This document shows positions 1 through 7,970 of a stretch of 7,970 nt of DNA, one piece after another (the stretch's first letter is position 1; every line of letters begins with the position of its first letter). The stretch is taken from positions 1 through 7,970 of the IMG/VR virus record IMGVR_UViG_2698536392_000014; one strand, written 5' to 3'. The stretch comes from a virus. Its lineage: Duplodnaviria > Heunggongvirae > Uroviricota > Caudoviricetes. A program made the translations under genes and the position numbers. The notes under the pieces were generated by a model. It worked only from the letters and a program-made list of their open reading frames with translations. It searched no databases and was not told the origin of the DNA.

Positions 1-378
1 CGCATGACAAAAGAGTTGACAGGTAAAACTCTGTTTATGGCGCTCAGGAGCCAGCGCCCACCTGCCGGGATAATCCACCACTCTGATCGAGGTTCACCGT
101 ACTGCGCATACGATTACCTGGTCATACAGGAGCAGTTTGGTCTGAGAACATCAATGTCGCGTAAAGGTAACTGTTACGACAACGCTCCGATGGAAAGCTT
201 CTGGGGAACGCTGAAAAATGAGAGCCTGAGCCACTATCGTTTTAATAACCGGGATGAAGCCATCTCAGTAATACGGGAATACATTGAGATTTTCTACAAT
301 CGTCAGCGTCGTCACTCTCGTCTGGGGAATATCTCCCCGGCAGCCTTCAGGGAAAAATATCATCAGATGGCTGCTTAA
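1..378 (+). CDS. IS3-family transposase OrfB (DDE integrase core), C-terminal 125 codons; 5' end outside window
   Basis: Frame is open from position 1 to TAA at 376-378. The translation (...HHSDRGSPYCAYDY...SMSRKGNCYDNAPMESFWGTLKNE...FYNRQRRHSRLGNISP...) matches, from memory, the C-terminal catalytic region of IS3-group OrfB proteins (compare IS3 InsF ...HTDRGGQYCSADY...[24 protein letters not shown]...YNRWRRHS...). Confidence 0.85.
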   Translation, partial: RMTKELTGKTLFMALRSQRPPAGIIHHSDRGSPYCAYDYLVIQEQFGLRTSMSRKGNCYDNAPMESFWGTLKNESLSHYRFNNRDEAISVIREYIEIFYNRQRRHSRLGNISPAAFREKYHQMAA

Positions 379-395
379 AAAAAGAACAAATGGTA

Positions 396-421
396 GTGTC
401 CGCTATTGCCAGTACACCTCA
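396..421. repeat. putative right terminal inverted repeat of the IS3-family element
   Basis: GTGTCCGCTATTGCCAGTACACCTCA resembles the inverse of the IS3 left end as I recall it (..CAGCAATAGTGGACAC.., terminal TGA/TCA); about 19 of 26 positions agree. The IS3 reference is recalled, not looked up. Confidence 0.4.
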
Positions 422-1482
422 AGAGTGTCAGTTGCGCTCTGATTTGTTCCTTCATCTTCAAACACGCCCTTTGTAGTCAGGTATTCAGTAATGTATTTGT
501 TCAGTGCCACAGGGTCTTTGTGAATGTCGATCGGACGTTCACGGACAAGGCCAAAAATAGTCTGGCGGTCGTAGCGAAGGGCATCAGGCTGTTTGCGCAT
601 TGATGCCGAGATACGCTTCCAGTCTTCGCGGCCGTTGTCGATAACTTCATTTTTTGCCCAGCGATGGATGCTGCCGTCAATGTTTCCGGCATCCACATCA
701 CCAGGCCAGAGAGCGTAGGCCAGTTCGTCATCCAGTGTTTTCCATGTCTGCTTGTATTCGCGATGAATGGCAGCAATGACCGGGCTGATTTTTCCTGTTG
801 AATTTTCAGTGTACTGTTGATTGGCTCTGGCGCGGGCGAGATCAACAACAGACGTGTATTTTCCGGTTTCCTTGCGTTCACCTTCGCGACGTTTTTTCCA
901 GATGCGCATTTCTGTCTGAATTTCGGGCCATTTGGCACCAGGCTTACATTTATGCTTAACCCACCCGATAGCATGCAGCTTAAGCTCCGGATACATGGCG
1001 TTAACTTCTGGCATTTTCATCAACGCTTCAACGATATGTCCGTCGAATGTTGCCATGTCTTCCTGCAACAATTCCTGCGCGCTAATCACCATATCAACGG
1101 TGATGTTTTCACATGTGTCGAACTTAACCATGACAGCGTTCTGTACTTCAGGGGCCAGCTTGTCAAAAGCGACGTTCATCGGATCTGATTCAGTCTCAAC
1201 CGGGACAAAGGAAGCAGACTCCTCATCCCAGCGGTTTTCCTGCATATATTCAGCATCCCAGGAATAGAGGGCAGGGCGGGGTATACCGGGTTTATCCTCG
1301 CAAACAAGAAATTTATAAGCGCAGTCCTGAGCAGCCGGATAATGCTCCAGGAATTGCCAGTGAAATTTTGCGCGGGCGCGACGTTCATCACCGGCTTCAA
1401 TGGCAGTGGCTACAGCGACTGCACCTTCTTCCTTTATTGCCTGTTCGTCCGGAATGGCGGCGCAAATAAAGACTTTACTCAT
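403..1482 (-). CDS. hypothetical protein, 359 aa; 3' end probably truncated or replaced by the IS insertion
   Basis: Long ORF with ATG at 1482 and a GAGG Shine-Dalgarno 9 nt upstream. Several shorter ORFs on both strands inside it look like shadow ORFs. Its last ~6 codons and TAG stop (403-421) lie inside the putative IS terminal repeat. No catalytic motif recognised by eye. Confidence 0.7.
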   Translation of the reverse strand: MSKVFICAAIPDEQAIKEEGAVAVATAIEAGDERRARAKFHWQFLEHYPAAQDCAYKFLVCEDKPGIPRPALYSWDAEYMQENRWDEESASFVPVETESDPMNVAFDKLAPEVQNAVMVKFDTCENITVDMVISAQELLQEDMATFDGHIVEALMKMPEVNAMYPELKLHAIGWVKHKCKPGAKWPEIQTEMRIWKKRREGERKETGKYTSVVDLARARANQQYTENSTGKISPVIAAIHREYKQTWKTLDDELAYALWPGDVDAGNIDGSIHRWAKNEVIDNGREDWKRISASMRKQPDALRYDRQTIFGLVRERPIDIHKDPVALNKYITEYLTTKGVFEDEGTNQSATDTLEVYWQ

Positions 1483-1761
1483 TTTGTTTTACCTCATTAC
1501 AGATTTCAGAGTGAACGAATCCCTGCCATTGCTGGCATTTTTAATCCGTTGGTATGGTGTTAATATGGCTGGAGGGTTATCCAGCCGGTGTTTCGTTATT
1601 CAGGTACAGCGATACTTTTTTTACCGGGAGGCATTCACCAGAAATTTTTTGCTCGTCTCTTGCCTGGAGGCAGGATTCTTTACTGGCATAAATTCCGGTA
1701 ATCACATTCTGTGATTCACCCGTTATAAGAAAAACCGTCATCATCAGTGCAAATGCTGAAG

Positions 1762-1950
1762 TTATTGACGTTCTCCGAAAATACCAAGTTCAAGAAGAGC
1801 AATTCGGGAAAGTATGGAATTATCATTGAGCAGATAAGGCTCATATTTCCTCATATTAATGGCATCTTCAGTAAACTCCCGGTTACTGAGCAGAACACCA
1901 ATATCAAAACAACCTTCAGACGTATTAACGTTTGGTAATAACGTTTCCAT
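1762..1950 (-). CDS. small hypothetical protein, 62 aa (METLLPNVNTSEGCFDIGV...)
   Basis: The ORF track gives 1762..2055 from a GTG; an internal ATG at 1950 is preceded by GAGGA 7 nt upstream and is the more plausible start. Same strand as neighbouring leftward genes. No family recognised. Confidence 0.4.
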   Translation of the reverse strand: METLLPNVNTSEGCFDIGVLLSNREFTEDAINMRKYEPYLLNDNSILSRIALLELGIFGERQ

Positions 1951-2055
1951 TATCGCGTCCTCAACAATGAATTTTGTGATGCGGTGCCTGGTGCCTCCAG
2001 GTGACGTTAACCAGTTAACAATTAACGCCGGATACAGAGAATCCACCCATAACAC

Positions 2056-2518
2056 TGTTTTTGGTTTTAACTGTTCCGCGTGCGCTGAGCCGCATTCACC
2101 GCATCACAAAATTCACTTTAAAAAGGGCGGCAGAGCAGCCACGGAGTAAAACTGATACCGCCAAACGTCACCAGAAAATTGATAACAGAGGGCGTTGCAG
2201 CGGGGTTGTCACTTAAGCGTATGGTCAACCTGACAACCCTGTGTCCTCAACGGGGGAAGGGATAACCCCGCCATACTTACCGCCGCGCCATTTCGCGGAT
2301 TGCCACAACCGGAAGCGCACGGTCGACGAAAATTTAACGACAGGCTATCTATGAACCAGCTACCTCGCCGTGCGCTTTCGCGTTATGGTCTGACTTTTCA
2401 GGGAAATATCCTTTCAGTAAACTGTCAGTGCCGGATGCTCACCCGTGTCCGGCGCACGCACTCCACCTCACCCGTGGAGAACTCCTTAATTACCAACCTT
2501 AGCTTCGTTGGTTAGCTA
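2056..2518. other. ORF-free, hairpin-rich region (about 460 bp) inside the leftward gene arm
   Basis: No ORF with a credible start on the minus strand (checked by hand in three frames). Contains an 11-bp stem (2201-2211 with 2231-2241), two adjacent stem-loops each carrying CTCACCCGTG (2438-2447, 2467-2476) and a 6-bp stem-loop at 2492-2512. Confidence 0.4.
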
Positions 2519-2737
2519 TTAACGCGGGTATGTAATCATTCTGGCAATGCTTAATGCCGCTGCTTTTTCCAGATTGGTGATATCCTGCTCCAGAGCGGAC
2601 AGATTTTCAGCCTGCTTAGCCCTGGCTTCATTGGCCCATTTCAGCTCCTGCGCTGCATTAATTTTCTGGTGCATCCACTCATAAAGTTCATCATCGGTAT
2701 AGTCTGGCGCGATGATGACGGGTTCTCGTTTCTGCAT
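2519..2737 (-). CDS. small hypothetical protein, 72 aa
   Basis: ATG at 2737 preceded by a consensus AAGGAG Shine-Dalgarno 5 nt upstream (reverse complement of CTCCTT at 2743-2748); TAA stop at 2519-2521. Predicted helical and charged. No family recognised. Confidence 0.55.
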   Translation of the reverse strand: MQKREPVIIAPDYTDDELYEWMHQKINAAQELKWANEARAKQAENLSALEQDITNLEKAAALSIARMITYPR

Positions 2738-2828
2738 GTCGGCTCCTTGTGGTTAGCGTTGCCTGCTTTTAACCACGTCAGGCGAGGTGGTATCCTTTGA
2801 GGGTCTGTTACTCGAGAGGAAATTGGTT

Positions 2829-3029
2829 ATGAATACAATCAAGTTTTCTTGCCCAGAATGTGGCGGCGAAGTCTTTGACACATCCTTTAAACCGCATGGC
2901 TCTGACAGTTTCGCGGGAGCCATCTGCAAAAATTGTGGTCACCTTGTAACTGAAGATGAGTCCTCGCAGTTTGATGACGAAATCGTTGACAATATCTTCG
3001 GTGCACTCACCAGAGACTTTCTGAAGTAA
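2829..3029 (+). CDS. small zinc-ribbon protein, 66 aa (CPEC-x22-CKNC)
   Basis: ATG at 2829 with GAGAGGA 8 nt upstream; two CxxC pairs with zinc-ribbon spacing; acidic C-terminal tail; no rare codons. Overlapped codon-on-codon by an antisense ORF (2808..3164), treated here as its shadow. Confidence 0.5.
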   Translation: MNTIKFSCPECGGEVFDTSFKPHGSDSFAGAICKNCGHLVTEDESSQFDDEIVDNIFGALTRDFLK

Positions 3030-3078
3030 AGGCGCATACCGCTTAGTTACCGCTCTGATAATTCTTACCTGTCCGGCA

Positions 3079-3116
3079 ATGGCGCTGATATCAATATAAA
3101 GCGCCATCGCTGTTTC
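3079..3116 (+). terminator. candidate terminator hairpin downstream of the zinc-ribbon gene
   Basis: Perfect 8-bp stem ATGGCGCT (3079-3086) with AGCGCCAT (3100-3107), 13-nt loop, followed by a T-rich tract CGCTGTTTCTTT. The long loop makes it atypical. Confidence 0.35.
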
Positions 3117-3342
3117 TTTGCTGATCCCAGGATGCCTTCCATTCTGATGTTTGACTTCGCCCACTGAGAAATCCTCTGTTTCCCCTTAACGCCGGGGTAG
3201 CGGAACAAAAAACCTGCTGCATAGTTAAACGTAATCCCCGCCGTCATGTTCATACGCCTCAGGCTGGCTACTTAACCCCTGACCACAGCCGGGTAACTCG
3301 AAGTATTGCCCTGCATTCTGTGAAGCGGGGTGGGTTGCAATG

Positions 3343-3371
3343 AATGTAAGAATATTTAGTTTTGTCGTCAA
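3343..3371 (-). promoter_or_regulatory. candidate leftward sigma70 promoter (PL-like) just downstream of the repressor gene
   Basis: On the minus strand: TTGACG (3371..3366), 17-bp spacer, TACATT (3348..3343). Would drive transcription away from the repressor 3' end into the leftward arm. Confidence 0.4.
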
Positions 3372-3372
3372 G

Positions 3373-3395
3373 TTGAATATAAATATTTTTAAGAT
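3373..3395. repeat. copy 1 of the motif TTGAATATAAAT(ATTTTTAAGAT), candidate operator or UP-like element
   Basis: First 12 bp are identical to 4102-4113; lies immediately upstream of the leftward -35. Confidence 0.45.
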
Positions 3396-3440
3396 AAAAG
3401 GCCGACAAAGCCGACCTCTGATTACAGGGCAAAGCGGGAG

Positions 3441-4085
3441 CTAGAGGCTGAACTGAACACCTTTTGCTACAGCAACGATGTTACATTCCGGTGTAAGTAA
3501 GGATGATTGATAGCGTGGGTTAAGGGGGGCTAAGTACACGAGCTTTCCATCAATAACTAATTTTTTTATAGTCATGGATGGTTCGTTTGTGAGTGGATCT
3601 GGGACTATTACTGCGACGATGCTACCATTTTTATATTTTTCGCCAGGCCTCATGATCACTGTGGCTCCAACTGGAATGCTTGGGGATCCTGATGGATTGT
3701 GCATAGTATCATCAGGCATTGAAACGGCAAAATCTCCCTCCTTGACATCAAAGAATGTGGTGATCCTGTCGACATTTCCCATAGTTTTCTCTCCTTTTAA
3801 TATTAGGAAAGAAATCGCTTCTCCCCAAGAAAGGTATGGGATTTGGGTACCTGGATTTTTCTGCACAAGGGATGATTCAGGTGATGATACTCCATACAGG
3901 AGATAGGACTCAGTAGTGCCTAGTGCTAGGGCTAATTTACTAAGAGCTTTGCTACCTGGTTCGTTTAGATCTTTCTCCCAGTATCCTATTGTTACCCCAG
4001 TTACGCCAGAAAGCTTGCCAAGTTCAACTTGGGTCAGACCTTTGTCTTTTCTGAGTTTCTTAAGCCTAATGCCAAGGCTTTCCAT
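3441..4085 (-). CDS. LexA/cI-type phage repressor (N-terminal HTH, C-terminal S24 autopeptidase domain), 214 aa
   Basis: N-terminal HTH (..KGLTQVELGKLSGVTGVTIGYWE..); C-terminal S24-like region with candidate catalytic Ser (..FAVSMPDD..) and Lys (..TIKKLVIDGKLVYLAP..); GGGAG Shine-Dalgarno 6 nt before ATG at 4085; divergent from a Cro-like gene. Confidence 0.9.
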   Translation of the reverse strand: MESLGIRLKKLRKDKGLTQVELGKLSGVTGVTIGYWEKDLNEPGSKALSKLALALGTTESYLLYGVSSPESSLVQKNPGTQIPYLSWGEAISFLILKGEKTMGNVDRITTFFDVKEGDFAVSMPDDTMHNPSGSPSIPVGATVIMRPGEKYKNGSIVAVIVPDPLTNEPSMTIKKLVIDGKLVYLAPLNPRYQSSLLTPECNIVAVAKGVQFSL

Positions 4086-4101
4086 TATTTTCTCCCGCGA
4101 A

Positions 4102-4123
4102 TTGAATATAAATTATTTTAGAT
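4102..4123. repeat. copy 2 of the motif TTGAATATAAAT(TATTTTAGAT) in the repressor/cro intergenic region
   Basis: Same 12-bp core as 3373-3384, same orientation. Its reverse complement contains a TATATT -10-like hexamer suitable for a PRM-like repressor promoter. Sits just upstream of the rightward -35. Confidence 0.45.
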
Positions 4124-4127
4124 TGTA

Positions 4128-4156
4128 TTGACCTAAAAAAAATTACCCTTTAATCT
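4128..4156 (+). promoter_or_regulatory. candidate rightward sigma70 promoter (PR-like) for the cro-like operon
   Basis: TTGACC (4128-4133), 17-bp spacer, TAATCT (4151-4156); about 30 nt upstream of the cro-like ATG, which has an AAGGGGAG Shine-Dalgarno. An imperfect inverted repeat ATTTTAG...CTAAAA spans the -35. Confidence 0.5.
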
Positions 4157-4184
4157 AAAAATACTTAGTTTTAAGGGGAGCGAA

Positions 4185-4412
4185 ATGCGAGTTGATGAAC
4201 TTGTCCAGTTTTTTGGTTCTGTCCAAAGAGTCGCTGATTTTTATGGGGTAACCCGAGAAGCTATATACATGTGGCGTAAGCGTCCCGGCGAAATAGTTCC
4301 CAAGGGGAGGGCTGCTGAAGCAGTTGCATACTCCAAGGGAAAATTATCGTTGAACCCAGAACTTTACAAAAAGAAGGATAACACCTCGAACGAAAGGAAA
4401 AATGATTCATGA
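4185..4412 (+). CDS. Cro-like HTH regulator (P22 Cro / YdaS-like), 75 aa
   Basis: Divergent from the repressor; strong Shine-Dalgarno; the HTH segment (..FGSVQRVADFYGVTREAIYMWRK..) resembles, from memory, the P22 Cro / YdaS pattern (..FGTQRAVAKALGISDAAVSQWK..). Confidence 0.8.
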   Translation: MRVDELVQFFGSVQRVADFYGVTREAIYMWRKRPGEIVPKGRAAEAVAYSKGKLSLNPELYKKKDNTSNERKNDS

Positions 4413-4705
4413 AAATCAAACATGAACACATCCGCATGGCGATGAATGCCTGGGCATATCCTGATGGTGAGAAAGTGCCTGCAGCTGAAATAGCCCGGAC
4501 TTATTTCGAACTTGGGATGACGTTCCCGGAACTGTACGACGACAGCCATCCGGAAGCCCTGGCCCGTAATACCCAGAAAATTTTCCGCTGGGTGGAGAAG
4601 GATACGCCTGATGCGGTTGAAAAAATTCAGGCGCTGTTACCGGCGATCGAAAAGGCGATGCCGCCTTTGCTGGTGGCCCGTATGCGCAGTCACAGTTCTG
4701 AATAA
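4409..4705 (+). CDS. YdaT-like / CII-analogue small regulator, 98 aa
   Basis: Start overlaps the cro-like stop (ATGA at 4409-4412), with AAAGGA 10 nt upstream. The N-terminus MKIKHEHI... matches my recollection of YdaT-family proteins that follow Cro-like genes in Rac-type prophages. The family assignment is recalled, not verified. Confidence 0.7.
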   Translation: MKIKHEHIRMAMNAWAYPDGEKVPAAEIARTYFELGMTFPELYDDSHPEALARNTQKIFRWVEKDTPDAVEKIQALLPAIEKAMPPLLVARMRSHSSE

Positions 4706-4855
4706 ATGGCTGAACTGCTGAATGATGCACATCCGGAATGGAGTTTAAGAACCTGTGAAAGACGCATTGAGCATTGGCTAAAGGTGGCAGAATTTATTTT
4801 GTACAAACCAATGGTTATGGCTTCTGGTATAGAGAAAAAAGTTATTGCTTTTTGA
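4706..4855 (+). CDS. possible small ORF, 49 aa, coupled to the preceding gene (TAAATG)
   Basis: ATG directly follows the TAA of the YdaT-like gene and ends before the intrinsic terminator; no Shine-Dalgarno of its own. Below the 60-aa cutoff of the ORF track; found by hand translation. Confidence 0.3.
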   Translation: MAELLNDAHPEWSLRTCERRIEHWLKVAEFILYKPMVMASGIEKKVIAF

Positions 4856-4933
4856 CGTAAAAACTGCTTCAATTCCGGTAAGCTTCGCAAAGCTGTACCG
4901 CGAGGCGAATAGCAGACATGGACATTTGAAAGA

Positions 4934-4955
4934 GCCCGCTTTTTGCGGGTTTTTT
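4934..4955 (+). terminator. intrinsic terminator ending the cro-like operon
   Basis: GC stem CCCGC (4935-4939) with GCGGG (4945-4949), 5-nt loop, then six T (4950-4955). Confidence 0.55.
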
Positions 4956-5077
4956 ATGACTGAAAAACGGCACGGGGCGTTAAATGCGCTGGTGGTTGCG
5001 AATACCGGTCTTTCTGCTTACTGGCTTTTTGGACAAGAATTATTGGTATGTCACGTTAACCAAAAGGGAAAAAAGAC

Positions 5078-5275
5078 ATGCTAAAACAGCAGGATATGAC
5101 AGAAACCGCCAGAGTGGTGTTTAATGAATTAAGCGTTACCGACCCGGCGACAGTCGGGGAGATTGCGCAGAATACTTACCTTTCACGCGAACGCTGCCAG
5201 TTAATACTGACCCAGCTTGTTATGGCGGGTCTGGCAGACTATCAGTTCGGTTGTTACAGACGCCTTCCGCAGTGA
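5078..5275 (+). CDS. small winged-helix-like DNA-binding protein, 65 aa; possibly a remnant N-terminal domain of an O-type replication initiator
   Basis: ATG at 5078 with AGGGA 7 nt upstream. The segment ..TVGEIAQNTYLSRERCQLILTQLVMAGL.. resembles, from memory, the lambda O N-terminal region (..LSEITKLPVKRCNEAKLELVRMNII..). Stop is embedded in a terminator. Confidence 0.5.
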   Translation: MLKQQDMTETARVVFNELSVTDPATVGEIAQNTYLSRERCQLILTQLVMAGLADYQFGCYRRLPQ

Positions 5276-5285
5276 AGGCTTTTTT
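5262..5285 (+). terminator. intrinsic terminator overlapping the stop of the 65-aa ORF
   Basis: Stem GCCTTC (5262-5267) with GAAGGC (5274-5279), 6-nt loop, then six T (5280-5285). Confidence 0.6.
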
Positions 5286-5302
5286 ATTTGTGGTAAATGG
5301 GC

Positions 5303-5333
5303 GGCTGGTGGGTGTTAGGGGCACCTACCAGCC
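5303..5333 (+). other. very stable stem-loop in the methyltransferase leader
   Basis: GGCTGGTGGGTG (5303-5314) pairs with CACCTACCAGCC (5322-5333): 12 bp including one G-U pair, 7-nt loop TTAGGGG, no following T tract. Two further hairpins follow at 5375-5393 and 5398-5416. Confidence 0.45.
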
Positions 5334-5425
5334 ATCTGCTCATGCGTTGGGTTCACAAGCAAACCTCAGGCCCACTGCTTTGCGCAAAAGCAGAATGAGC
5401 CTATCAGAGACAGGCTTAATGATCC

Positions 5426-6502
5426 ATGCTTAATACTGTAAAAATATCCAGTTGTGAGTTAATCAACGCTGATTGCCTGGAATTTATCCAGACCTTACCG
5501 GAAAACTCTGTCGATCTGATAGTCACAGACCCGCCATACTTTAAAGTGAAGCCCGAGGGCTGGGATAACCAGTGGAAGGGCGACGATGATTACCTGAAGT
5601 GGCTGGACCAGTGTCTGGTGCAGTTCTGGCGGGTGCTGAAACCTGCCGGAAGTCTTTACCTGTTCTGTGGCCATCGCCTGGCATCTGACATTGAAATCAT
5701 GATGCGTGAACGCTTCAATGTGCTGAACCATATTATCTGGGCGAAGCCGTCCGGACGCTGGAACGGGTGCAACAAGGAAAGCCTGCGGGCGTATTTTCCG
5801 GCCACAGAACGCATTCTGTTCGCGGAACATTATCAGGGGCCGTATCGTCCGAAAGATGATGGCGATGAGGCGAAGGGCAGGGCACTGAAACAGCATGTGA
5901 TGGCCCCGCTGATTTCTTACTTTCGTGATGCGCGTGCTGCTCTTGGGATAACGGCAAAACAGATTGCAGATGCCACAGGAAAGAAAAACATGGTGTCGCA
6001 CTGGTTCAGTGCCAGTCAGTGGCAGCTACCGAACGAAAGCGATTATCTGAAATTACAGTCGCTGTTTGCCCGGGTGGCAGAAGAGAAACATCAGCGGGGA
6101 GAACTGGAAAAGTCCCATTACCAACTGGTCAGCACATACAGTGAGCTGAACCGGCAGTATATGGAACTGCTGAGTGAATATAAGCATCTGCGGCGGTATT
6201 TCGGTGTGACGGTGCAGGTGCCGTACACCGATGTGTGGACGCATAAACCGGTGCAGTACTATCCAGGGAAACATCCGTGCGAAAAACCGGCAGAAATGCT
6301 GCGGCAGATAATCTGCGCGAGCAGTCGTCCGGGTGACCTGGTGGCGGATTTTTTCATGGGTTCTGGCTCAACCATAAAAGCAGCTATGGAGCTCGGGCGT
6401 CGTGCAACTGGTGTTGAACTGGAGGCAGAACGTTTTGCGCAGACCGTTAAGGAGATTAGTCACATCCTTACATGCTCAATTGATGACGGGAAGGATGGAT
6501 AA
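5426..6502 (+). CDS. DNA methyltransferase, beta-class amino-MTase (N6-adenine or N4-cytosine), 358 aa, apparently orphan
   Basis: Motif IV DPPY near the N-terminus (..VDLIVTDPPYF..) and AdoMet motif I near the C-terminus (..DLVADFFMGSGSTIKAA..); order IV-I defines the beta class, with a central target-recognition region containing an HTH-like stretch. No restriction endonuclease gene adjacent. ATG at 5426 has no obvious Shine-Dalgarno. Confidence 0.9.
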   Translation: MLNTVKISSCELINADCLEFIQTLPENSVDLIVTDPPYFKVKPEGWDNQWKGDDDYLKWLDQCLVQFWRVLKPAGSLYLFCGHRLASDIEIMMRERFNVLNHIIWAKPSGRWNGCNKESLRAYFPATERILFAEHYQGPYRPKDDGDEAKGRALKQHVMAPLISYFRDARAALGITAKQIADATGKKNMVSHWFSASQWQLPNESDYLKLQSLFARVAEEKHQRGELEKSHYQLVSTYSELNRQYMELLSEYKHLRRYFGVTVQVPYTDVWTHKPVQYYPGKHPCEKPAEMLRQIICASSRPGDLVADFFMGSGSTIKAAMELGRRATGVELEAERFAQTVKEISHILTCSIDDGKDG

Positions 6503-6613
6503 AGATATGGTCAGTTCAGGCTGTGAAGCAAGTAGACAGATAAGGCTGCAATAAAAACTGACAATAGTAAAATAGCTTTTTCCCAGGTAGTCATGAATAC
6601 GATCTCTTAAAGC

Positions 6614-6633
6614 GCCCGCTGATACCAGCGGGC
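6614..6633. other. GC-rich hairpin downstream of the methyltransferase gene
   Basis: Perfect 8-bp stem GCCCGCTG with CAGCGGGC and loop ATAC. Only a short T run on the minus-strand side and none on the plus side, so a weak terminator at best. Confidence 0.3.
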
Positions 6634-7271
6634 AATACATACTGGCATTAATGTTAAGTTCAGGGATAATTCATCGTATTTTGTGGTACGACGCTATCAA
6701 TATTAATAAACAGTATTTTTCATGTAAAATTTCTGTTTTTTGATCTGATTCTCGTTTCCTGGGTTATGATGTTGTTGTGAACCATGCTGTTGAATGATAA
6801 TGTTCGGGTATAAAATTGTTGCTGATATGTAGCGCAGTGAGCAGGTGGTATTTCTGTTGCTGAGTGTACGGATACAGTGCTTCCCTCCCTCAGCGGGGGG
6901 GCAGGTGTGCTGTGGTTTTAGAGACACCGGAAACGAGAATGATGCGGGTTTGCTGGTGCCGGGATAGAGTCGCCGGAGGTCATGACATAGAGCAAAAAAG
7001 GAATGTGCATGCAAATACACACCTCTTCGGAGATCTCTTCTTTATATGGATGAGCCTCAAGGTCAATAGTTTATCTGTTATGTATTCATATGTTGTTACT
7101 TATATAATCCATACGGGCATATCATCAGTACACACATACTATTATGGCATTTTATTTTTGTTTTAACTGAATTCCCGGGGCACTCTTTTTGATTTCTGAT
7201 AAGGAACCAGAATTTTCTGTTAAATGGTGTCACGTTGTAAATGGTTAATGGAAGCAGCTTATTATCCATAA

Positions 7272-7295
7272 TCACACCTGAGTTAACAGGTGTGA
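7272..7295. promoter_or_regulatory. perfect 9-bp inverted repeat TCACACCTG-AGTTAA-CAGGTGTGA, candidate binding site for a dimeric regulator
   Basis: Exact palindrome arms with a 6-bp spacer, inside an ORF-poor AT-rich region about 430 bp upstream of the next gene start. Confidence 0.35.
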
Positions 7296-7722
7296 GAATA
7301 CTTCCGGGTGGCAGGAACACATCTGACTGATACCAGATTATCAACTTTATTTTACACCATACAGTTGAAAACGTTATTCCGCTTGATGGGCATATCACTG
7401 TGTCAATAACTATCCATTCCATCTTTTAACCTTCTCGGTACACATTGCTTTCGATTGTTTTGCTAAAAATCATAGTCAATAAATCAGTGTAACTCATTGA
7501 AAAAGATCGTCTTCTTTGTCTTCCTGGGGTTTTCTTTTCTAATTTTGTATCACTTTGGTTCAAGTTGTTTCATTTTTTTGTAATACAAATTAGCAGGATG
7601 AGCGGGAATATAAAAAAATCGGATGTTTTTGTAATGGATATTATTTTTTGTAAAATAATGTATTTTTATTTAAATCTCTATCAGAAAAGAATTTATTGTT
7701 CCTTTATATGGTGGAAAAGGTC

Positions 7723-7970
7723 ATGGTATTTAAACACTACGATGTGGTCAGGGCGGCGTCGCCGTCAGATCTTGCGGAAAAGCTGACACAAAAACTGAAG
7801 GAGGGGTGGCAGCCATTTGGCAGCCCGGTGGCCATCACGCCTTATACTCTGATGCAGGCCATTGCTGCGGAAGGTGATGTCACCCCACCTGTGTTGGTGA
7901 AGCCGTCGGATGGAGAAGGCACAGTAATCAGCGCCACCAGAGACCCGGAGTATTACTTTGTTGTGGTTCT
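7723..7970 (+). CDS. hypothetical protein, 5' partial (first 82 codons; continues beyond window)
   Basis: Not in the ORF track because no stop is reached. ATG at 7723 (alternative in-frame ATG at 7708) preceded by AAAGG; translation MVFKHYDVVRAASPSDLAEKLTQKLKEGWQPFGSPVAITPYTLMQAIAAEGDV... is open to the window end, with a clear shift to higher GC and typical codon usage after the AT-rich spacer. Confidence 0.5.
   Translation, partial: MVFKHYDVVRAASPSDLAEKLTQKLKEGWQPFGSPVAITPYTLMQAIAAEGDVTPPVLVKPSDGEGTVISATRDPEYYFVVV

Follow-up and report, generated by a model that had tools for sequence, protein, structure and literature searches.

Long antisense overlapping genes in bacteria and their phages are disputed; most candidates are young, lineage-restricted and supported by expression only, and annotation pipelines remove one overlapping partner by rule. 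The embedded antisense genes of Escherichia coli O157:H7 are likewise mostly young and narrowly distributed. Temperate phages use convergent transcription in their switches, examples being the lambda PRE promoter, read antisense through cro, and the sar/ant arrangement of P22. Among described gene pairs, ano lies antisense inside ECs2385 of E. coli O157:H7 (PMC5960689), three further pairs are known from strain EDL933 (PMC9927249), and the long antisense genes olg1 and olg2 of Pseudomonas aeruginosa have been argued to be real partly on the basis of purifying selection in the alternative frame (PMC8850804). Shadow open reading frames (ORFs)—non-coding ORFs in the -1 register of real genes—are a general phenomenon (bioRxiv 10.1101/724807). 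Here, we analyze a stretch of 7,970 nucleotides from a viral record of the Caudoviricetes (IMG/VR record IMGVR_UViG_2698536392_000014, positions 1 to 7,970; hereafter the window), in which a zinc-ribbon ORF on the plus strand (ZR) lies entirely within an antisense ORF on the minus strand (AS). Our comparison of related loci shows that both reading frames are maintained, each under what the substitution patterns identify as frame-specific purifying selection. With moderate confidence, we read the locus as two protein-coding genes, one nested antisense within the other, that travel together as a single module in lambdoid prophages of Enterobacterales.

The features at the core of the locus are the following, with positions counted from the first nucleotide of the window:

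2829-3029, plus strand: ZR, a 66-aa zinc-ribbon gene with a CxxC-x21-CxxC motif and an acidic C-terminal helix (ORF list, PGAP, NF047912).
2808-3107, minus strand: AS, a probable gene of 99 conserved codons from ATG 3107 to TAA 2808, containing all of ZR in exact -1 codon register.
3030-3107, minus strand: the N-terminal 26 codons of AS outside ZR, the segment that decides whether AS is coding.
3108-3164, minus strand: 5' part of the AS frame that is specific to the strain, reaching back to GTG 3164 (AGAGGA upstream); not conserved.
2808-3164, minus strand: the longer AS frame of the window strain, 118 aa, starting at GTG 3164 (ORF list).
3065-3253, minus strand: a 62-aa ORF (ORF list); not a gene.

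An earlier note on this DNA had described ZR and the 118- and 62-codon minus-strand frames, and all three are present in the ORF list where it had placed them. The exact antisense codon register that it reported between ZR and the 118-codon frame is also correct, as is the AGAGGA motif, which precedes the GTG by 7 nt on the minus strand. Its zinc-ribbon motif needed a trivial correction: the two CxxC pairs are there, and Cys 8, 11, 33 and 36 give a spacing of x21 and not x22. In the overlap, the shared triplets start at positions divisible by 3, with ZR codon positions 1, 2 and 3 lying opposite AS positions 3, 2 and 1 and codon position 2 facing codon position 2. The longest form of the ZR ORF starts at GTG 2787. 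An ORF in -1 register over a 66-codon gene is unsurprising alone; its persistence and its extension beyond ZR in every examined clade exceed chance. Public records are divided over the two strands. The Prokaryotic Genome Annotation Pipeline (PGAP) recognises ZR alone, which it names 'ECs_2282 family putative zinc-binding protein' in an identical record and otherwise 'hypothetical protein', and the GenBank record of phage vB_EcoS-640R1 annotates only the minus-strand ORF (AS) as a coding sequence. The ECs_2282 family and PHROG 21318 are descriptions of the same DNA—a practical point for annotation.

Protein searches and contig look-ups yielded about 150 loci (L numbers below are our handles), 141 of which have a full-length match to ZR. 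Eight deep clades keep both ORFs, namely those of E. coli, Klebsiella/Citrobacter amalonaticus (L002, L006), Citrobacter freundii (L003), an Enterobacter type (L091), Serratia (L158) and the clades of L150, L151 and L159, and across them ZR is 45-70% identical to that of the window. In all eight, the AS stop falls within -21 to +3 nt of the ZR start, and the AS frame stays open for 35-118 codons beyond the ZR stop, into clade-specific, non-homologous DNA. AS is uninterrupted across ZR in all 141 loci with a full-length match; premature stops interrupt ZR in 23 of them, almost all E14* and one E44*. The E14* allele, a change of GAA to TAA at codon 14, occurs in about 21 of the 141 loci on several haplotype backgrounds (the L068, L138, L082, L066, L137, L067 and L074 groups, with L086 listed alongside), and it also turns a Phe conserved in AS into Leu. 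Moreover, AS is co-directional with the flanking early operon in every setting found: directly after the repressor and the early-left promoter (PL) in most clades, and directly after cro in the PR operon in L002 and L006. In these Klebsiella/C. amalonaticus prophages (L002 4001-5476; L006 4001-5342), a plus-strand transcript of ZR would pass through cro in antisense, heading for the repressor gene, in a geometry like that of lambda PRE.

We judged the locus as a nested antisense pair on two counts: whether both ORFs are intact and co-conserved across divergent taxa, as found in eight clades and about 140 loci, and whether purifying selection can be attributed to the ZR frame and to the AS frame, as was found for both. 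A homolog from a soil metagenome (L145, ZR 41% identical) was considered as a further case of deep co-conservation and rejected; it was not counted as evidence for AS because its antisense N-terminus does not resemble AS (z about 0) and the genes beside it point the same way as ZR. This copy (L145 2986-3261) adjoins an ISXO2/IS1595-like transposase gene with no recognisable prophage context, and its antisense frame is open for 91 codons, the N-terminal part being unrelated to AS. A scan of species-representative genomes returned only unrelated zinc ribbons in larger proteins.

The coding status of AS is decided outside ZR. Homology between clades runs about 78 nt past the ZR stop and ends at a minus-strand ATG (window 3107). 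Within this segment (3030-3107), the AS frame shows 32 synonymous versus 27 non-synonymous events and a ratio of non-synonymous to synonymous change (omega) of about 0.31, the lowest of the six frames, with no stops. The changes divide 40/20/27 by plus-strand phase, AS codon position 3 being the most variable, and the Nei-Gojobori (NG86) proportions of synonymous (pS) and non-synonymous (pN) differences are 0.68 and 0.36. When clade pairs were compared by BLOSUM score in all six frames, the AS frame almost always came out as the most similar at the protein level (sum 972 vs 675 for the next frame). Its z-scores reach 4-7 even for pairs at about 44-50% DNA identity, as in L150-L151 with a score of 42 (z 6.9) versus at most 25 in the other frames; these naive z-scores are inflated, the clade pairs not being independent. 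Additionally, 2808-3107 contains no indel among 60 distinct E. coli variants, 3156-3364 contains many indels that are not multiples of 3, and the indels in ZR and in the AS core are all multiples of 3. Judged from these substitution patterns, purifying selection in the AS frame is clear in the 26 non-overlapping codons.

The start of AS can be placed at the edge of this homology. Shine-Dalgarno sequences precede the ATG in other genera ('AGGAG...ATGATG' in L006, 'GGAGAGG...ATGATG' in L002, 'GGAGG...ATG' in C. freundii and 'AGGAAGTGATGATG' in L159), and AS is 93-131 aa long in other clades. The form of C. freundii (L003/L004/L089; L003 3995-4519, minus strand) is longer, at 174 aa, with an 80-residue N-terminal extension without a family match; where AS usually starts, it also retains an internal ATG with its GGAGG ribosome-binding site, and two isoforms are possible. 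GTG 3164 was rejected as the conserved start. A 1-nt deletion at 3156 in nine related loci puts it out of frame and leaves only ATG 3107, and 3108-3164 is not homologous between clades; the conserved AS therefore comprises 99 codons from ATG 3107, and not 118. AS belongs to phrog_21318 (E 3.3e-66), its residues 20-118, from Met20, aligning with profile positions 1-99 of 99; that family holds close relatives only, and the match alone is no evidence of coding.

These observations bear on a simpler explanation, in which only ZR is real, AS is its -1-register shadow and a 3' untranslated region or another non-coding element accounts for the conservation of the 78 nt beyond the ZR stop. Such an account is in keeping with the stronger selection on the ZR frame inside the overlap, with PGAP annotating ZR alone and with the soil homolog L145, in which ZR is co-oriented with its neighbours and the antisense N-terminus is unlike AS; two further points in its favour, from ZR four-fold sites and a decayed remnant, are given below. 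Outside its host gene, however, a shadow would be neither conserved nor selected in its own right, yet 3030-3107 shows both conservation and selection in the AS frame: the 78-nt segment is coding-like in the AS frame only, and its protein similarity persists at near-random DNA identity. The ATG with its Shine-Dalgarno sequence at the homology edge, the frame that remains open in unrelated flanks, the match between AS orientation and the early operon in PL and PR settings alike, and the overlap simulation and codon choices described below also speak against it. We hold this explanation to be unlikely. The suggestion of the earlier note that the 118-codon ORF is a likely shadow was thus not borne out, given protein conservation in its own frame past ZR, a start at the homology edge with good ribosome-binding sites in other genera, an AS frame unbroken in about 140 loci against ZR stops in 23, and a constant orientation with the early operon. 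Rather than a shadow, the ORF on the minus strand is probably a gene in its own right.

Inside the 200-bp overlap, the stronger signal is that of ZR. Events divide 58/25/88 by ZR codon position, and omega is about 0.28 in the ZR frame versus about 0.84 in the AS frame (range about 0.7-0.84 for AS). For ZR, pS is 0.54 and pN 0.24; for AS, pS is 0.39. Both pS values lie below the 0.68 of the AS-only segment. AS position 1 changes faster than AS position 3 (88 vs 58 events), which is impossible for a lone gene. Among deep pairs, moreover, the four-fold degenerate sites of AS are identical in 197/226 cases (87%) within the overlap versus 53/101 (52%) in the AS-only segment, which implies a second constraint on its 'silent' sites and on this count rules out antisense-only coding. 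When synonymous and non-synonymous conservation was compared by frame, as the earlier note had proposed, selection did not prove to be confined to the minus-strand frame.

ZR also behaves as a gene at the protein level. With 57.4 bits against a cutoff of 37 (E 1e-15), it matches the NCBIfam model NF047912 over positions 1-56 of the 60 in the profile, which places it in that family. Cys 8, 11, 33 and 36 are invariant in nine clades, and all four belong to a set of 13 ZR columns that do not change even at 39% identity. The start, the stop, the length (62-68 aa) and the Cys residues are retained in homologs that are 39-70% identical. The codons for Phe 6, 16 and 28 and for the Cys residues stay fixed while AS flips between K and E or A and T, and ribbons like that of ZR are found at the N-termini of unrelated proteins. 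Taken with omega and the four-fold sites, these comparative data uphold the preference of the earlier note for a real zinc-ribbon gene.

The opposite explanation, that only the minus-strand gene is real and that ZR is a by-product of the antisense frame with CxxC pairs arising by chance, would sit well with an AS that fits the operon direction everywhere, with phage depositors annotating AS and not ZR, with ZR nonsense alleles (23 loci) at about neutral expectation and with AS giving the better AlphaFold2 model. It is contradicted by the two overlap signatures above, the 87% versus 52% four-fold identity and AS position 1 outpacing position 3. Equally hard to reconcile with it are the ZR start, stop, length and Cys residues kept to 39% identity, the Phe residues that do not move while AS changes charge, the match to a curated family model with similar ribbons elsewhere, and a conserved promoter-like and Shine-Dalgarno element upstream of ZR. 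We consider this explanation very unlikely.

A third possibility is that both ORFs are translated and that the part of AS opposite ZR is a passenger, only the N-terminal ~26-45 residues (an amphipathic helix) being functional and the remainder being tolerated read-through whose sequence ZR dictates. The clear AS-frame selection is indeed confined to the non-overlapping N-terminus, and the AS omega range in the overlap given above also fits this account. Several columns argue otherwise and are signs of constraint from both frames. ZR column 22 varies between P, S and T, and AS always has Arg there in the eight clades, by way of CGG, CGA, CGT, AGG and AGA. ZR Ile21 always uses the rare ATA codon (Val being GTA), which keeps an AS Tyr in the seven non-E. 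coli clades; the window has Lys (AAA) there and Phe in AS. Changes of E to K at ZR columns 10 and 14 are silent in AS (Phe), as are S/P at column 25, I/V at 32 and Q/E at 47. The columns invariant in AS and variable in ZR are thus Arg at 22 and 25, Phe at 10 and 14, and Asp at 32. ZR codons 36-38 (TGT GGT CAC), read as 'VTT' in AS, never vary; they are invariant in both frames, with the ZR four-fold sites unchanged. Finally, no stop has ever shortened AS, and AlphaFold2 confidence for AS peaks in the overlapped part. We rate the passenger account as distinctly improbable.

Sorted by their effect on the two frames (silent in both / in ZR only / in AS only / in neither), the overlap events number 7/73/36/37, against expected shares of 0.011/0.22/0.24/0.525, and the rate per opportunity falls from silent in both through silent in ZR only and silent in AS only to silent in neither. 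We also simulated selection on ZR only along a neighbour-joining tree; the probability that AS stays stop-free in eight clades was 0.013 at the most conservative calibration and about 0 otherwise, in a simulation that is imperfectly calibrated for amino-acid change. Nulls based on independent codon resampling were dropped in favour of this tree-based simulation, as they overstated significance with synonymous sites unsaturated. Two reciprocal single-base changes, verified on the sequence, separate the frames: C2967T gives Q47* in ZR and is silent in AS (CTG to CTA, Leu), and T2945A gives a stop in AS, at Lys55 of the 99-aa form, and is silent in ZR (CTT to CTA, Leu).

The candidate transcription elements around the nested pair are the following:

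3343-3391, minus strand: PL-like promoter with -35 TTGACG (3371-3366), a 17-nt spacer and -10 TACATT (3348-3343), with operator-like repeats (sigma-70-like scan, 9 of 12 matches).
3391-3416, minus strand: terminator-like hairpin GGUCGGC-UUU-GUCGGCC followed by UUUUAUCUU, just after the repressor stop codon (read from the sequence).
2769-2796, plus strand: candidate ZR promoter with TTAACC, a 16-nt spacer containing TG, and TATCCT; extended -10 TGgTATCCT at 2788-2796 (sequence, conservation).

The promoter scan alone is weak, with 4 sites found versus 2.7 in shuffled sequences. The PL-like hit gains support because it directly follows the hairpin and U-run that end the repressor gene, because operator-like repeats overlap it and because the scan found no terminator-like site on the minus strand from 3343 to 2808. 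The hairpin itself was missed by the pattern scan; its stem uses G-U pairs. Copies of the repeats at 3343-3363 and 3356-3391 stand between the repressor and cro genes, at 4152-4172 and 4085-4120, and these shared AT-rich repeats (e.g., AATnTAAGAATAyTTAGTTTT and TTGAATATAAATwTTTTA, common to 3343-3391 and 4085-4172) are likely S24 repressor operators, as expected for OL/OR. The PL-like promoter and the leftward read-through of the region that the earlier note had proposed are accordingly plausible.

The leader of this predicted leftward transcript contains the 62-codon ORF, which was rejected as a gene: a 1-nt indel at 3207 shifts its frame in 57/60 distinct E. coli-clade variants, the start motif is missing in most variants, 3194-3250 holds many indels that are not multiples of 3, and no family match was found beyond a weak 18-residue PHROG hit. 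Among close relatives, 3156-3364 is an indel hot zone (1-, 3-, 14- and 18-nt indels) with mosaic breakpoints at about 3333-3364; yet 3181-3344 is 85-94% identical to prophages carrying ydfA/ydfB in place of AS/ZR. A structured RNA in the PL leader (3165-3336) was likewise rejected, with a folding z-score of 0.94 and DicF as the only Rfam match above threshold in the window.

On the plus strand, an inverted repeat, ACCAC-N10-GTGGT (2772-2791), shares sequence with the candidate ZR promoter. Diverged clades retain this repeat ahead of ZR, together with the TGnTATCYT motif and a AAGAAGGA ribosome-binding site, and L161 carries a compensated stem variant of the repeat, CCACGC/GCGTGG. A 38-nt element (2760-2797) that takes in the repeat and TGgTATCCT is found identical before an unrelated plus-strand 66-aa ORF at the same place in phage mEp460, and we read it as a candidate rightward promoter for a variable 'plus-strand slot'. 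This element (also L156 1501-1538) is 100% conserved in many E. coli genomes and phages without ZR and ydfC. Its role could be that of a promoter or an operator, or it could form an RNA hairpin within the leftward transcript.

The genes around AS/ZR that define its setting are these:

3441-4085, minus strand: LexA/S24-type prophage repressor (Pfam HTH_3 and Peptidase_S24; PGAP), upstream of the PL-like promoter.
2519-2737, minus strand: ydfC (PGAP; phrog_1744), the next gene of the leftward operon.
2125-2176, minus strand: DicF small RNA (Rfam, 75 bits), after ydfC and followed by dicB.

Read along the minus strand, the order is repressor, PL-like promoter, AS/ZR region, ydfC, DicF and dicB. 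Gene content identifies the region as the early-left (dicB-type) operon in a Qin-like prophage that is partly decayed: a promoter with operator-like repeats common to the cI/cro region is followed by co-oriented early genes, the operators being predicted ones. Over the 1-kb stretch around AS/ZR, the sequence matches part of the E. coli 2013C-4830 chromosome at 100% identity; PGAP lists the repressor, ydfC, dicB and a DUF1482 gene there on the minus strand. Signs of decay in the PGAP annotation are an IS600 transposase end and truncated exonuclease, YdaT and DUF1133 genes; decayed-prophage features were located at window positions 4-378, 403-1482, 4409-4705 and 7096-7422. A DNA methyltransferase gene lies at 5426-6502, and the anti-adapter gene iraM at the right end of the window. 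A match to STnc100 below threshold (1918-2127, minus strand; 37.7 bits vs a gathering score of 47) abuts DicF and overlaps the dicB start.

In this setting, AS would be the first gene of a repressor-controlled early-left operon (PL, AS, ydfC, DicF, dicB), in place of ydfA/ydfB, and would be made on prophage derepression, when PL fires. With PL silent, ZR would be expressed from a conserved extended -10 promoter of its own, the candidate at about 2769-2796, and convergent transcription across the shared 200 bp would lead to mutually exclusive expression states. We tentatively put forward, as a possibility well short of even, that the locus is a portable switch giving two proteins from one duplex, with ZR as the lysogen-state product, AS as the early lytic one and exclusivity imposed by convergent promoters, one of them a repressor-controlled PL or PR. 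If so, the module would report and reinforce the prophage state, and its two products may act oppositely on the same target. The earlier note had posed a choice between a real minus-strand ORF and a leftward transcript antisense to a lysogen-expressed zinc-ribbon moron; both probably hold, with the 99-codon version of AS as the gene and the 62-codon ORF falling away.

The two products were also approached through structure prediction and database searches. AlphaFold2, run on an 11-sequence alignment, models AS as helix-helix-helix-hairpin-helix with a predicted local distance difference test score (pLDDT) of 67.7 and a predicted template modelling score (pTM) of 0.49, the confidence being highest (70-80) in the overlapped part; the ZR model is poor (pLDDT 54.7). 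Searches of Pfam, NCBIfam, PHROGs and PADLOC gave nothing significant beyond the two self-families. An exhaustive search of 1.84 billion representatives with a hidden Markov model of AS returned 9 hits; all of them belong to the AS family itself, and AS therefore has no independent relatives lacking ZR among these sequences. Membership of ZR in the Lar family of restriction alleviation proteins (TIGR03655) was not supported, the score of 15.9 bits (E 0.012) lying below the cutoff of 39.6. The two invariant CxxC pairs suggest putative zinc binding; the likeliest role for ZR is that of a small protein that depends on zinc to bind a nucleic acid or another protein, and for AS that of an accessory protein of the early phase. 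Literature searches returned no paper that mentions ECs2282, and the overlapping-gene papers found do not cover the locus.

Several results weigh against the reading of two nested, functional genes. ZR is dispensable in many E. coli prophages, as E14* knocks it out in about 15% of related loci. The reverse pattern of decay is seen in the L160 remnant, where indels frameshift the AS N-terminus and ZR is intact (67 aa), which also favours the account in which only ZR is real; that remnant (L160 3001-3204) adjoins a molybdopterin oxidoreductase gene and has the motif VTEDES changed to VTAAES. The same account is helped by the four-fold sites of ZR, whose identity of 58% is not clearly higher than the 52% of the local neutral proxy, a proxy of 26 codons only. 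Constraint on AS within the overlap is only moderately supported by the codon-level patterns, and a contrast of the dNN/dNS type could reflect position 2 changes being more radical in ZR than position 1 changes. The interdependence of clade pairs, noted above, tempers the similarity scores as well. The Shine-Dalgarno sequence before ATG 3107 is weak in the E. coli lineage of the window; therefore, GTG 3164 with its AGAGGA may be used locally. With regard to ZR as a moron, the conserved TGnTATCYT lies about 35-40 nt upstream and the candidate promoter has only 8 of 12 consensus matches, below the scan threshold, and the scan found no terminator-like site after ZR. Finally, the AlphaFold2 models are mediocre, and structural comparisons found no relatives of AS or ZR, sequence searches of the PDB being empty.

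Set beside the described systems, the closest neighbour in genomic terms is the dicB operon of the Qin cryptic prophage of E. coli K-12 (ydfA-ydfB-ydfC-dicF-dicB; PMC5069750), which has the same skeleton and the same position downstream of an immunity repressor. Both loci have ydfC, DicF, dicB and a DUF1482 gene; where K-12 Qin and many other prophages carry ydfA and ydfB between the repressor and ydfC, the window carries the AS/ZR module instead, and K-12 has only ydfC in common with the 1-kb stretch. The antisense pairs of O157:H7 resemble AS/ZR in that one ORF is embedded antisense in another within an O157-type genome and standard annotation keeps one of the two. They differ in resting on RNA-seq, Ribo-seq and phenotypes, whereas AS/ZR is known here from sequence comparison; AS/ZR, in turn, is kept in at least eight deep clades of several genera, including Escherichia, Klebsiella, Citrobacter, Enterobacter and Serratia, and its 'annotated' partner, ZR, is the embedded one. 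The P. aeruginosa genes olg1 and olg2 are ORFs of 957-1536 nt inside chromosomal housekeeping-type genes of a high-GC genome, whereas AS/ZR is a phage module of about 300 nt and about 47% GC that relocates between PL and PR operons and bears reciprocal codon-level signatures in both frames. With shadow ORFs, AS shares the exact-register antisense position spanning a real gene; a shadow is expected to end near the gene borders without selection of its own, but AS runs at least 26 conserved codons beyond ZR under frame-specific constraint. Lambda PRE and P22 sar/ant are similar in that a promoter in or beside the immunity region directs transcription against an early lytic transcript. There, the RNA made in antisense either has a regulatory role or serves a non-overlapping gene, whereas the AS and ZR transcripts would both be mRNAs, read from the same codons. 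AS/ZR thus stands apart in that its frames are co-conserved across genera, each with codon-level constraint of its own, that the unit moves between two operon settings, and that RefSeq and GenBank phage records annotate opposite strands of it. It offers a test case for the evolutionary stability of dual coding, for codon sharing in the -1 register and for nesting as a means of coupling gene choice to the lysis-lysogeny state—with the frame-specific changes C2967T and T2945A making dual coding directly testable.

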